A DNA stretch of 64,000 bases from Chrysomallon squamiferum (taxonomy: Eukaryota > Animalia > Mollusca). The DNA lies in contig CM022670.1 in NCBI GenBank assembly GCA_012295275.1, forward strand, positions 14,570,001 to 14,634,000, given 5' to 3'. The position numbers and the translations under genes are program-made. Under the pieces are notes generated by a model that saw only the letters and a list, made by a program, of their open reading frames with translations, searched no databases and was not told where the DNA came from. Every line of letters begins with the position of its first letter. The first letter of the stretch is position 1. Of this stretch, positions 1 to 63,509 are shown one piece after another.

Positions 1-3000
1 CAAATGCACACTGTGATGTGCAGTATGGAGATTGCGGTAATGGTAGATGTCAGGCAGGATGGAAGGGAACTGACTGTAGACAAGGTAACTGACTTTTCAC
101 GAATTTAGACACAAATATTTTTAAATGATTATACTCTGTAAGTTCAGCATGTGAAACATCTTTTCTGTATTTCTGTATATAAAAGCACAATAATAATACC
201 TTCCTTTACGACAGTTACTGATTTTAAAACATTTGACTTAAACATTTTAAAAATGTATATTTATTGACCTTAACGACAAATTACATTATGACAAAGAACA
301 TAAATTAAATGTATGTAATATTATTTTCGTAATGGATTACAATAATAAATAAGAAATGATTAAATCCAAAGATTTATTATAATGATTTATTATTTATTTT
401 TTACATTTCCCCAAATTAATTGTAAGGAGAACGTCTTTTTTATATTTTTGTTTGAAATTTGTAACTATTATAAGATAACAAATTTCATCATCATCACTAA
501 AACTATCACTAAATAGGGTAATAATAATAACTATCTTGTTTTCAGTGTAAGAAAACAAGAAAATATCTATCATTTTCCAACAAATACAATTGATTAACAG
601 TCCGAATATTAAATTTTAATTTCATGTTTTTGATAGATATTTGACTTCTTTATAGCCAACATAATATCTTAGCAATGACAAGTTACTATTTACGTTCTTT
701 TTTACTTTAGTAAATCATTATTATGTTTCCATTATGCAGATCTCTATCGACTTAAGGAGCTGTGTTATTAGTTTATCGCTTAGGCTAAATATCATCGCTC
801 TTAAAGACGTGTGTTGGGCTAATAATAAACAGTATTTTAACGTTGCTTTATAACTTTTCACTTTTGTAGAGGACATAATTCAGCTAATCTTTTTACTGTT
901 ACTAATATTACTACTACTACTACTACTACTAACACTACAACAACAACAACTACTACTACTACTACTACTAATAATAATAATAATAATTATAGTGGCTCTC
1001 AGGTATTATTAAGAATTAAGAATGGGTCACAAAAAGCATCTTCCATTAATTACTTGAATTATTATTTTTTATTTGTAAGCTTCTTTATTTATGTTCAAAT
1101 TTACTTTCAGTTTGTGCAGCGGGCACATACGGATTAAACTGTTCAACATTTCCTTGTTACGTAAAGTAGAAATGTCAGTAACAGTAAGTCAACAGACAGA
1201 TAACTAAGCCTTCTTCTTGCTTGTAATCAAACATATTTTGAAACACAAAAATAAAGAAATAACATGAATGTATGTTAAATAAAATGTTAAAAAGCGAATC
1301 TTTATTTAAAGTATGTTTTGTTTGTTTATTTTTCATACTTGCTCTGTTAGAATGCGATAACAGGTATGGAGAAAACTGCAGTTTACACTGTGAAGTCAGA
1401 CATTGTAAAGATGATAAATCTCCCTGTGATTCTCGTACTGGAGAATGTGTTGGAGGATGTAAACCTGGATGGTTTCACATTACTTGTACTCAACGTAAGA
1501 ATAGTTTCTGTCCTTCTTCTTTAGCACATAAAAGGTTTTCAAGCTGAACTGAAGTGACACTTTAATGAAGCGACAAACTAATTCAACTCGATTTGTCTAA
1601 TTTGGAATTTTACATAATAATAAAATAATAAACATTCATTTAATCAGTCATTTATTCGCTGAGTCATTCATTATTTCAAAGAATAGAAAAGTTAGGTATA
1701 TAAAAAAAAGATGTTCTATTTGCAGTCAGTAAATTTACGTCGTATTCGTGACTTTGTCTCATAATTTATAGCAGCGTTATAAGGAGAAAGGCCATAACAA
1801 ACTGTAAACATTTTAACTCAATACTTAGAATATCATAGAAACGTTGAAGCCATGCTTTGCCGTCATAGCATTATTAATCTGGACCTCTGTGATGATGACG
1901 ATGATCATCATCGTCATCATCATTATTATCATCATATTTTTCTTATGATCAAAGTCATCATGTGTATTTATAGGGATTATCTTATGTATAAAACAGTATT
2001 ATTTTCTTGAAAGCATCTTGAGTACAAAAAAATGATTCTGTACCTAATATTGTAGAATGTCCTTCTGGTAAATACGGAGATGGATGTTCACCTAACTGTG
2101 ATGAAAGACGTTGCTTTGGAGGACAGAAATGTGATTCAGAAACTGGACAATGTATTGATGGATGCATCCCTGGATGGGAAGGAATTTCATGTTCAGAAGG
2201 TATGTATGTATGTATGTGTGTGTGTGTGTATGTATGTATCAATGTGTGTGTATATATGTATACATCAGATCAAAGTTTTCCTATCGTTTTGGTAAAATGA
2301 ATATTCGTGCAAAATGCTTTAATGATATATATATATATATATATCAGTTTGTGCTTTAATTAATTAATTTATTTATCTATTTATCTATTTATGTATTTAT
2401 GCATTTGTTTATTTATTTATAATGATGATGATGATGATACTAATAATAATAATCATTATCATCGTCTACTCCTTCTTCTTCAGTGTACATTGTCTTTTTA
2501 TAATGACTTTTGTGTTGTTGCTGTAGTTCTTCTCCCTCTTTTTCTTCTTATCATCATCATCATCATCATCATCATTATTATTATTATTATTATTATTATT
2601 ATTATTATTATTATTATTATTATTATAATTTTTAGTTTCATCAGAGAAAGAAACAGTGACAACCAAACCGTCGTCTGAAAAGACAACAATAACAGCTTTA
2701 TCAATTACAACAGGAATGCTATCTTTATTTGTGATAATTTTCATTGTTGTTATTATATGGTAAGTTTGAATTAAAGCAAAGCGCGGTTCTCTCTCGTAAC
2801 TGTAATAAGAAAACATTGATCGATGATAGTAGAGTTACATAGAAATTAGTTATTTCAAATGCAATAACCCACACATGAACCTTTATACTGATATGTTTTG
2901 AAGTCCCAATGTTATTAATATGTTTATTGGAATCAGGATTTTCAGCAGCCTAAACTGATTATTGTAACATCTTAATTTTTAGGCTGCTTCGGATTCGGAA

Positions 3001-3277
3001 TCGGTCAAACACCAGCGAACATACGGTATCGTTTGCCAAAAATGAAAGAACCCAGTCCAGAGCAGCAGCTACTTCATCAGCACTGTACGAAGTTCCTCAT
3101 GAAGACATGAGTCGAGCAACTAGAAATGATGATCAGAGGACTAAAACAGATGTGGCACAGTCAGACTATGAAAACACTTCATTCCAAGCTGATACCACTC
3201 AAGAAATAAATGATTATGATAAACTAGATACTGATGTTGCTGGACAGAGATCTCCATATGACAAAATTAAAACGTAA
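1..3277 (+). CDS. Gene A (5'-truncated by the window): EGF-repeat single-pass receptor with ITAM-like tail
   Basis: Exons <1-84 (EGF3-type), 1351-1494 (ECDNRYGENC...), 2056-2199 (ECPSGKYGDGC...), 2636-2759 (stalk+TM ...TITALSITTGMLSLFVIIFIVVIIW), 2983-3277 (tail ending ...DYDKLDTDVAGQRSPYDKIKT*, TAA 3275-3277). All junctions are GT-AG with compatible phases. AATAAA at 3370-3375. Confidence 0.85.
1111..1169 (+). pseudogene. Truncated EGF pseudo-exon in gene A
   Basis: A good acceptor (ttactttcag) is followed by CAAGTYGLNCSTFPCYVK*, the start of an EGF module that then breaks off. Confidence 0.55.
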
Positions 3278-62000: not shown

Positions 62001-63509
62001 ATCAACAGAGACAAGTGACTAGTATTACGTAAACACAAGGCCACACCAATGTAATTATTTGTATGTCATTCAGTATTATGCGGGATATAAAACGGAACTG
62101 TATAACACGGAATAAAATTACAGTGTTTCGAGATTATGGAAATGTTGTATGATCGGTAAGATAATGACAAGAAGCTATTTTCTTTCTACTAGCGGATCTG
62201 TAACTTAAAACTGATTGTCATATCCGAATACAGGAAACACAGCTCTCCATGTAATAGTATCTACATTGCACAGTACATTACTGAATAACAGTAATGCTTA
62301 AATTTAACATAATCTATAGCAATGTCATATATGTTATCTAGTGATATCGGCAATTCCAATATTTATTATAATAAATAATTGAATTAAAAAATATATATAT
62401 ATATTTGTAAGTAAGTAATAAAACTTACAGTCACAAATTTGTCTCAGGCAGGAAAATAAGAACGCAAAAATTAATAAATAAAATTATTTTACAAAATGTA
62501 GAAAATATGTTAAATAAGAAAAATATGAAATTAAATATATCTTTGTTTTATGATGTACTTATTTATTTGTTGGTTGTGCTTGTTTTCTTGTTTCGTTGTT
62601 TATTTATTTATTTATTTATTTATTTTTATTGTTGTTCTTGTTCTTGTTAGTGGTGGTGTTGCTGCTGGTTTTGTTGTTTTACTTTATTTTATTCATTTTT
62701 ATTCTTTTTTATTTTATAATCTCACGTTAAAAATGATATTGCTTCATTTTTCTATCATCATTTTTAGACATTTATCTAACCCATTTGTCCGTCCTATAAA
62801 AATGTTACGCTTTTAAAATGTCAGCCGTGTTCAACAATTATTACTGCTAAAAAATTAATTATTACATCTCGTAAGACAACTCAGAAATAGAAAGAAAATG
62901 ACACAAAGAAATCAGAATATAAAAATAATTCTATCTCATACACCGTGATTAAATAAATGAATCAATGATATAAAATAAGATTAATTTTAATGGCATTTAT
63001 ATTTATATATATACCATTAAAATTACATTATATCGATTTCAACAATATTAACTGTGATGAAGAAATAGAGAACTGATTTCAATATTGTGATATATGTATA
63101 TACATGCACACACAGATATATATATATACATACACACAAACACATATACATATAAAAAACACACAACACAAATATATGCATATACATGATCTCACAGTAT
63201 ATTTATTGAAATCTTTCTTTATATATGTGTTGTTTGTGTGTGTGTGTATGTATGTGTTTATATATATATATATATAGATATATATATACACACACACACA
63301 CACATTTCATCAAATATACTTACATACAAACGCATACAGATATACAGAAACGTATACAAATACAGACATAAGAGAAGAACAACTGGAGAAAAAAAATGGA
63401 TGTTCTGTATTATTTGAAAAAGCGACTTACCAAACTCTGCAACAATAGAGACATGACAGAAAGAAAGAAAATACAGAACAAGCGCAAGAAACATCCAAAC
63501 TATAGCCAT
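50041..63509 (-). CDS. Gene E: paralogous F-type lectin + 3 EGF receptor PTP (24 exons, ~992 aa if corrected) with a +1 frameshift in the catalytic VHC codons; possibly a pseudogene or decoy
   Basis: Exons in transcription order: 63509-63431 (signal MAIVWMFLALVLYFLSFCHVSIVAEF), 61429-61214, 60437-60219 (lectin), 59204-59052, 58781-58629, 57949-57815 (EGF), 56750-56648 (TM), 56443-56376, 55923-55646, 55508-55421, 54946-54870, 54710-54674, 54513-54416, 54223-54098, 53853-53707 (147 versus 146 nt in D), 53587-53452, 53310-53164, 52915-52882, 52535-52471, 52293-52177, 51821-51696, 51180-51029, 50817-50679, 50127-50041. Internal PTP exon sizes match gene D apart from that extra base. Total 2980 nt = 3n+1. 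Confidence 0.85.
56489..56596 (+). repeat. (CT)n microsatellite
   Basis: Read directly from sequence. A similar (AG)n run lies at 38133-38224. Confidence 0.95.
58370..58437. repeat. Near-perfect inverted repeat (31-bp arms, one mismatch, 6-nt loop) in a gene E intron
   Basis: aaagaaattaagatatttttccttc-t-tgctt GATTAT aagca-t-gaaggaaaaatatcttaatttcttt. Confidence 0.85.
60620..60839. mobile_element. GC-richer non-autonomous DNA-transposon (MITE-like) end fragment in a gene E intron
   Basis: Local GC island with internal repeats ttggatgccc x3 and tgtttgaatgcca x2, ending in CACGCCACTG, which resembles a CAGTGGCG-type terminal inverted repeat. The other terminus was not found. Confidence 0.45.

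Follow-up and report, generated by a model that had tools for sequence, protein, structure and literature searches.

The window analysed here, that is, the whole stretch of 64,000 nucleotides (nt) from 14,570,001 to 14,634,000 of contig CM022670.1 of the mollusc Chrysomallon squamiferum (GCA_012295275.1), is AT-rich (~29% GC) and carries many microsatellites; it holds five genes, A, B, C, D and E, modelled exon by exon with solely GT-AG splice sites as single-pass receptors with an F-type lectin domain and epidermal growth factor (EGF) repeats, and their closest proteins are those of the vent snail Gigantopelta. A, B and C end in a short tail with four tyrosines (tail type), and D and E in two protein tyrosine phosphatase (PTP) domains, D1 and D2 (PTP type). 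A first-pass annotation of this DNA had described five adjacent receptors with the same order of signal peptide, lectin, EGF repeats and transmembrane (TM) segment, and had read them as paired receptors. Five genes with this layout were indeed recovered, with two reservations: the window begins within an EGF exon of gene A, so that its signal peptide and lectin fall outside, and both C and E carry a frameshift. In the assembly as it stands, complete open frames are limited to B (454 amino acids, aa) and D (1091 aa). The genes and their lesions are as follows.

3–3277, + strand: gene A, tail type, 5' end beyond the window, open frame with GT-AG sites; EGF exons 3–84, 1351–1494 and 2056–2199, TM exon 2636–2759, tail exon 2983–3277.
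5913–14358, + strand: gene B, tail type, open; signal exon 5913–5994, lectin exons 7177–7383 and 8332–8538, EGF exons 9961–10104, 10907–11059 and 11536–11688, TM exon 13717–13840, tail exon 14064–14358.
19281–26297, + strand: gene C, tail type, frameshifted in lectin exon 1; signal exon 19281–19362, lectin exons 20694–20901 and 21345–21551, four EGF exons (22064, 23193, 23820, 25031), TM exon 25656–25779, tail exon 26003–26297.
20868–20873, + strand: run of six T in C (five in B) causing the +1 frameshift, either a genuine lesion or a homopolymer assembly error.
31370–47737, + strand: gene D, PTP type, open, C-terminus SSVYANCP; signal exon 31370–31451, lectin exons 32843–33049 and 33544–33750, five EGF exons within 34514–37952, TM exon 38495–38597, juxtamembrane exons 39149–40138, D1 exons 40465–43599, D2 exons 43827–47737.
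42475–42907, + strand: catalytic D1 exons of D, with the WPD loop.
50041–63509, − strand: gene E, PTP type, convergent with D, with an older, divergent head; signal exon 63509–63431, lectin exons 61429–61214 and 60437–60219, three EGF exons, TM exon 56750–56648, D1 exons 55508–53164, D2 exons down to 50041.
53707–53713, − strand: one additional base at the end of the WPD/VHC exon of E, a frameshift immediately before the catalytic Cys.

All EGF and lectin exons are of phase 1-1. B, D and E passed the cut-off of Pfam F5_F8_type_C in lectin exon 1, and Y_phosphatase matched the D1 exons; the 8-cysteine repeats gave weak EGF-type matches only (DSL, EGF_laminin, EGF_STAB1-2), yet they resemble proteins annotated as MEGF, and the EGF exon 1351–1494 of A has 70% identity with Gigantopelta aegis XP_041357563.1. 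Lectin exon 1 of C is 208 nt long versus 207, with a stop at codon 88, and the WPD/VHC exon of E has 147 nt versus 146 in D, with a stop at codon 698; since each gene has a single lesion, assembly error and recent pseudogenisation are both possible. The first-pass annotation had named uncollapsed haplotypes as the artefact that would undo its reading; this explanation fails, because the introns of the copies differ by 7–12% plus indels, their exon content differs and three to four copies are present. A search for PTP exons 3' of A, B and C, or for the tail exon within D and E, found none.

The tail of A, B and C is encoded by one exon and is 97 aa long, with Tyr35, 62, 78 and 92 and the motif YD[KR]L-x10-YDKI, as had been claimed; it fits the consensus YxxL/I-x6-12-YxxL/I of the tyrosine-based activation motif of immunoreceptors (ITAM), which appeared by chance in 0.3% of tail shuffles (P 0.003), compared with 8% for the inhibitory counterpart (ITIM) and 26% for YxN.

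3215–3268, + strand: ITAM-like motif of A, YDKL-x10-YDKI.
14296–14349, + strand: ITAM-like motif of B, YDKL-x10-YDKI, whose final Tyr also fits the ITIM consensus SxYxxI; YEVP (14167) and YEN (14248) lie upstream.
26235–26288, + strand: ITAM-like motif of C, YDRL-x10-YDKI.

The spacer range of 6–12 is the one used for CgIgR, an oyster ITAM receptor that recruits Syk (PMC6994640). The acidic residue (D/E) at −3 of the strict ITAM is absent, and acidic residues occur at −1 and −4. No NPxY was found in the three tails, and their TM segments have no charged residue, so signalling would come from the tail itself. As for conservation, A, B and C alone are uninformative, since 75 of their 97 tail columns are invariant and four conserved tyrosines are expected with P about 0.36; the evidence comes from searching 1.84 billion representatives in full with HMMER, which returned four tail relatives: the G. 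aegis protein XP_041357563.1, which consists of EGF, TM and tail and is the tail orthologue at about 40% identity, and three unnamed fragments. At 38–44% identity, these relatives retain Tyr35, 62, 78 and 92, N64, L81 and I95 among the 17 columns invariant in seven tails, and the spacer of 10 residues is constant; being found by similarity, they are biased toward conserved motif columns. Neither the tail exon nor lectin exon 1 had a match in word-indexed searches for homologues, and a metagenome scan with the tail alignment gave 139 pattern matches, none of which was confirmed. Derivation of the tail from the PTP juxtamembrane region was rejected, as it has no homology to that of D or E (shuffle p 0.29–0.86).

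Regarding the phosphatase receptors, D1 of D is intact (KNRY, WPD, HCx5R and Q loop), and D1 of E has the same motifs but with the frameshift at the catalytic Cys. D2 lacks KNRY, WPD and HCx5R, a degeneracy that fits an inactive domain; Pfam gave a weak D2 match in one of the four D exons scanned (E-value 0.021), and comparison of the D2 exon with the PDB matched nothing meaningful. The tandem D1 and D2 ending that had been attributed to both genes is confirmed. The cytoplasmic parts of D and E are 60% identical to each other and closest to G. aegis XP_041357574.1 (55–59%; 97% support in a D1 tree of 34 rows), and D1 of D is as distant from D1 of E as either is from the G. aegis protein. This affinity makes a gastropod close to Peltospiridae the probable source of the DNA. 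One exon departs from this pattern:

45934–46111, + strand, and 51186–51009, − strand: D2 exon common to D and E at 89–91% identity; the adjoining D2 exons have 61–70%.

Such a local excess points to a short gene-conversion tract between two old paralogues. Of 43 PTP-type proteins, 33 have YxN at the C-terminus, D and E among them (isoforms were counted and are not independent), against a background of 7%. The closest solved relatives of the G. aegis PTP orthologue are RPTP (receptor PTP) epsilon, LAR and alpha, with scores within 7 bits; with these scores inseparable and a lectin-EGF ectodomain, the receptors are not assignable to the R4 subtype (PTPalpha/epsilon). The juxtamembrane regions of D (39852–40138) and E (55923–55646) carry tyrosine motifs of their own, YMN and YYN in the former, YESL and YYN in the latter, and YYN ahead of the wedge recurs among gastropod PTP types.

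Turning to the head, the claim that it is the same in both classes holds for B, C and D, whose lectin and EGF1–3 exons share 87.5–97.4% nt identity, and fails for E, which has 52–70% with them. From the signal exon to EGF3, the exons of B, C and D are 88–97% identical and their introns 88–92%. At the protein level, the ectodomains of B and C are 78–86% identical to that of D and the TM segments 19%, and the homology of D to C stops about 260 bases past EGF3 (37053). Given the D1 distances between D and E, and a tail orthologue in G. aegis at about 40%, the 3' modules of both classes are old; the distal heads and introns of B, C and D, by contrast, are near-identical, which argues for recent conversion or unequal crossing-over between the classes. 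Sequence comparison thus indicates that the B, C and D heads were recently homogenised between tail and PTP classes, in one direction or the other. Amino acid change among the three genes is concentrated in lectin exon 1, where the nonsynonymous/synonymous counts are 13/2, 21/4 and 15/2, against 4/6, 3/5 and 5/5 in lectin exon 2 (Fisher p 0.03, 0.02 and 0.06); from F-lectin structure, exon 1 presumably holds most of the loops around the sugar pocket. A truncated copy of this exon lies in an intron of B and is a possible donor of loop variants:

7730–7869, + strand: partial duplicate of lectin exon 1 without the 5' part of the exon, with C-like loops; 92.8% identity to C and 88.4% to the B exon.

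The F-type lectin assignment is sound, with FBP32 and streptococcal fucolectin-related proteins as the closest solved structures. The fucose motif of this family is H-x26-RxD-x4-R/K. It is complete in D (H-x-RxD-x4-R), which has Tyr in place of one EGF Cys, and in C if read across its break; B has Leu in place of the His, as well as Ser in place of one EGF Cys, and E has Trp for Asp. Just 4 of the 45 lectin domains examined match the motif. The heads are predicted to bind glycans, which may be fucose-like for D and C.

Intergenic DNA was duplicated alongside the genes with 81–91% identity (15825–18232 and 27451–29911; 3676–6425 and 28823–31877), which implies a repeat unit of ~12 kb that includes upstream regions and could give B, C and D shared promoters. 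Decayed EGF exons (1111–1160, 37500–37600, 38267–38360) and 3' fragments of exons within introns (12026, 22682, 22859, 35426, 35601) suggest gain and loss of repeats, altering receptor length. GC-rich intron stretches in B (8600–9290, unmatched in C or D) and E (60750–60860) are possible mobile-element remnants.

The first-pass annotation had proposed to look for tail/PTP pairs in related genomes. With the G. aegis tail protein as the query, 1028 candidates were obtained, of which 77 were longer proteins; none of the homologue matches came from Biomphalaria. ITAM-like tails on like ectodomains were found in G. aegis (P0017), Haliotis asinina (P0015, four isoforms) and Crassostrea virginica (P0019 and P0020), as well as in scallop (P0062, with Val at the last position) and in a Logan contig (P0027); the pattern occurs in 13 of 39 non-PTP cytoplasmic segments, a count that includes isoforms and insect Draper-like proteins, and in none of the 44 PTP juxtamembrane segments. 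Five of nine tail-type ectodomains (B, C, P0017, P0015 and P0062) match a PTP type of the same species at 72–86%, above any PTP or tail type of another species; in vent snail, abalone and scallop the same-species head identity between the classes is 72–76%. One Logan tail-type protein has 65% with a Crassostrea gigas PTP, a same-species comparator being absent. In all seven tail/PTP pairs inspected the TM identity is 14–33%, and identity breaks at or before the TM. The lectin tree covered 28 of the 45 domains, once fragments, proteins with several lectins and one duplicate had been set aside; it required five label changes for six tail-type lectins, and a single tail-type clade was rejected (approximately unbiased test, p 5e-13). 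As for linkage, the two types have equal scaffold length and accessions 10–26 apart in G. aegis (two clusters) and in H. asinina:

G. aegis, near-consecutive sets: XP_041357563/573/574 and XP_041374072/086/098.
H. asinina, near-consecutive sets: XP_067679820–823 and 837–841.

Accessions and scaffold lengths, as distinct from coordinates, thus suggest that tail and PTP genes are clustered in both species. A single origin of all mollusc tails was unsupported by the tail hidden Markov model (HMM). Related mollusc EGF ectodomains also occur on protein kinase domains (P0045, P0067 and P0071, of Bulinus, Mercenaria and Ruditapes), possibly a third signalling class, and P0005, P0006, P0011 and P0058 have a PTP-type-like TM and juxtamembrane region and end ahead of the phosphatase domain, being truncated decoys or incomplete annotations.

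Regarding transcription, sequencing-run contigs were compared over 13710–14850 only. Two of three RNA-library runs gave one short contig each (105 and 129 nt, 90–95% alike) across the ITAM-coding end; they derive from copies other than B, span no splice joint and may reflect DNA carry-over, so they neither prove nor refute expression. A run search with 36500–38000 listed no RNA run, and one run with a small share. Run X1, which may be the source sample, gave 56 contigs across all 30 bins, with 6, 12, 20 and 18 in the bands of 99% or more, 95–99%, 90–95% and under 90% identity, a depth that does not equal copy number. Its contigs include a 7-base intron deletion (13874) and a shortened spacer ahead of the ITAM-like motif (14280–14360), unlike A, B and C, and further tail-type copies therefore probably exist outside the window. 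In the databases, RefSeq models, like the four H. asinina isoforms, run from lectin/EGF through TM to tail.

The reading favoured here, to which a probability of about 0.5 is given, is a tandem cluster that combines a recently homogenised head with two old signalling modules, likely as activating/inhibitory receptor pairs: the ectodomains are highly similar, the genes linked, and the TM and cytoplasmic parts different, with a PTP in place of the ITIM of a classical inhibitory member. Under this model, a shared glycan would cluster the tail type, a Src-family kinase would phosphorylate the tail, and Syk/Shark and Grb2 would bind it (at YxxL-x10-YxxI and YxN), with phagocytosis or an oxidative response to follow, as for Draper. 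The PTP type, whose ectodomain is about as long and would bind that same surface, would enter the contact and dephosphorylate the tail; the phosphatase arm would oppose the ITAM arm. Both types would be co-expressed in haemocytes or epithelia, and gene conversion may keep their specificities matched, so that microbes exploiting the phosphatase are countered by the activating twin. The paired-receptor proposal of the first-pass annotation keeps its core, namely old, unrelated TM and cytoplasmic modules under a homogenised head, with tail tyrosines that do not vary between species, and its recurrence in molluscs; it loses E, whose head is unshared, and is weakened by the two frameshifted genes. 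In short, what had been observed is real, was overstated in part for this window, and is general across molluscs. A wider version remains tentative, somewhat short of even odds: a phylum-wide system with repeated swaps of F-type-lectin/EGF heads between receptors that have an intrinsic ITAM and receptor phosphatases of matched size, co-recruited by one glycan, which would be the mechanism behind LG5R/SudRes1 schistosome resistance and, for vent snails, a candidate mechanism of symbiont tolerance.

Several points weigh against such pairing. Tandem arrays homogenise through unequal crossing-over without functional pairing; C and E are frameshifted, and the open pair, B and D, may not bind the same ligand, as B is without the fucose His. 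Within A, B and C the tail has a proportion of nonsynonymous differences (pN) at or above the synonymous one (pS), its spacer of 10 falls outside the strict ITAM range of 6–9 in the consensus that Huene et al. quote, and its final Tyr fits an ITIM. Three of the nine tail-type ectodomains (A, P0004 and P0020) have no close same-species PTP partner (46–55%), synteny in other species is judged from accession numbers and the lengths of scaffolds, the two scallop genes do not share a scaffold, and the abalone, oyster and scallop tails are not detectably homologous to that of A, B and C (HMM, best 7.5 bits), and are hence convergent or very diverged. Finally, the conserved C-terminal YxN and the closeness to RPTP epsilon, alpha and LAR make a Src-activating role of the PTP type possible.

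This last point is the basis of an alternative that is unlikely but deserves to be taken seriously, a cooperative pair in which the PTP type would prime Src-family kinases by removing their inhibitory C-terminal phosphate, giving an AND gate and not an on/off switch. PTPalpha and CD45 act in this way, and the motif of PTPalpha Tyr789 is YxN, as at the C-terminus of D, E and most PTP types; going by the reference titles of PMC7959691, this tyrosine is a binding site for Grb2 and aids the activation of Src through phosphotyrosine displacement. However, membership of R4 is unsupported, CD45 is also listed as an eraser of Fc-receptor ITAMs in PMC8092387, and rapid loop divergence with pseudogenisation is less expected of an obligate partner than of an arms race. 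The absence of any functional pairing is doubtful to a greater degree: the locus would be a birth-and-death array of pattern-recognition genes in which exon shuffling and unequal crossing-over swap the heads of neighbours, the two types acting independently, perhaps in different cells. The uniform 1-1 phases suit this view, as do the decayed exons, the duplicated lectin exon, the two frameshifts and the D/E conversion in a dead D2 exon, which imply exchange irrespective of function, and the related EGF heads on kinases; it sits less well with an identity that ends at or before the TM in every pair inspected, with close tail/PTP pairs in four lineages, and with the fact that both classes are kept side by side.

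That the tail is itself inhibitory or an adaptor (ITIM/SHP-2, Grb2, Nck/Crk), so that both classes recruit or carry phosphatases, is improbable. S-P-Y-x-K-I is invariant across the tails and SPYDKI fits [SIVL]xYxx[IVL], P0003 and P0004 have an ITIM at their first Tyr, and the tandem SH2 domains of SHP-2 also bind two-tyrosine motifs; but 8% of tail shuffles produce an ITIM, the other mollusc tail types retain the two-YxxL/I pattern mostly without an ITIM, and insect Draper-like proteins share that pattern with a 9-residue spacer. Least credible by far is that the tail genes are debris without expression, or that assembly created the array as an artefact: the C frameshift, the His and Cys losses of B and the pN of the tail would agree with it, and the tyrosine motifs conserved at 38–44% identity, the database models joining head to tail and the intron divergence between copies speak against it.

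As for novelty, the first-pass annotation did not recall the pairing as described, which is true only in part. Calvelo et al. (2026, PMC13712769) describe one Biomphalaria cluster, tied to parasite resistance, that contains fucolectin receptors of a short-tailed (1B) and a tandem-PTP (1C) form, and state that the short cytosolic domains have no identifiable signatures; 'ITAM' occurs 0 times in the main text of that paper. Similarly, Pennance et al. (2025, PMC12297450) describe the SudRes1 clusters of MEGF and galactose-binding-domain RPTPs in Biomphalaria sudanica, with 'ITAM' 0 times in the accessible part of the article, and Lan et al. (2021, PMC7895826) report that fucolectin and MEGF families expanded in G. 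aegis, with a figure that also lists PTPRK. No proposal of an ITAM-tail/RPTP pairing in molluscs was found in the literature searched, which included few subscription papers and left out the supplements of PMC13712769. Hence, the architectures and their co-clustering were already known, and the conserved ITAM-like tail and the repeated matching of heads appear to be unpublished within that literature. The matter is of consequence because clusters of both architectures are the top candidates at two mapped snail schistosome-resistance loci, where the short-tailed members are without an assigned signal; an ITAM-like tail with matched phosphatase heads gives a testable model of how molluscs could tell tolerated from attacked glycans without adaptive immunity.

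Among known systems, Biomphalaria LG5R 1B/1C is the most similar in architecture, which does not imply orthology: signal peptide, galactose-binding/fucolectin domain, EGF-like repeats, one TM, and a short tail or two PTPs, in a cluster; it differs in that ITAM, head homogenisation and pairing are not proposed in the sections of PMC13712769 that were examined. The SudRes1 RPTPs share the architecture of D and E, with recent duplication, extracellular diversity and EGF loss, whereas the other MEGF genes nearby are noted in the accessible text, not as ITAM-bearing partners (PMC12297450). Draper, MEGF10 and CED-1 have an EGF-repeat ectodomain and an ITAM-like tail, read in Draper by Src42A and Shark/Syk, and Draper has an inhibitory counterpart, Draper-II with Corkscrew, which is a splice isoform and not, as here, a separate gene with its own phosphatase (PMC8092387). 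Unlike these proteins, the receptors of this locus have an N-terminal F-type lectin, no EMI domain and no NPxY. RPTP alpha/epsilon and CD45 have an active D1, a dead D2 and a C-terminal tyrosine motif; D and E differ from them in the ligand-binding lectin-EGF ectodomain, the polymorphic multigene array and a D2 that has degenerated much further. Invertebrate clusters with ITAM- or ITIM-type tails are also known as Alr in Hydractinia and FcoR in Botryllus (10.1101/2022.03.04.482883; PMC12582321), but their ectodomains are of Ig type and the inhibitory members use ITIMs, not an intrinsic PTP.

The last comparison is with vertebrate paired receptors such as Siglec-5/14, PIR-A/B and SIRP, and with the intrinsic-ITAM pairs Fc-gamma-RIIA/IIB and CEACAM3/CEACAM1. 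Like the present locus, they have near-identical, clustered ectodomains homogenised by gene conversion over unrelated TM segments and tails; in the snail, the TM of A, B and C is uncharged, the head is lectin-EGF and not Ig, the opposition is putative, and the counterpart is a receptor PTP instead of an ITIM that recruits SHP-1/2. If the favoured reading is true, this would be a new design of paired receptor, with the enzyme built into the inhibitory member.

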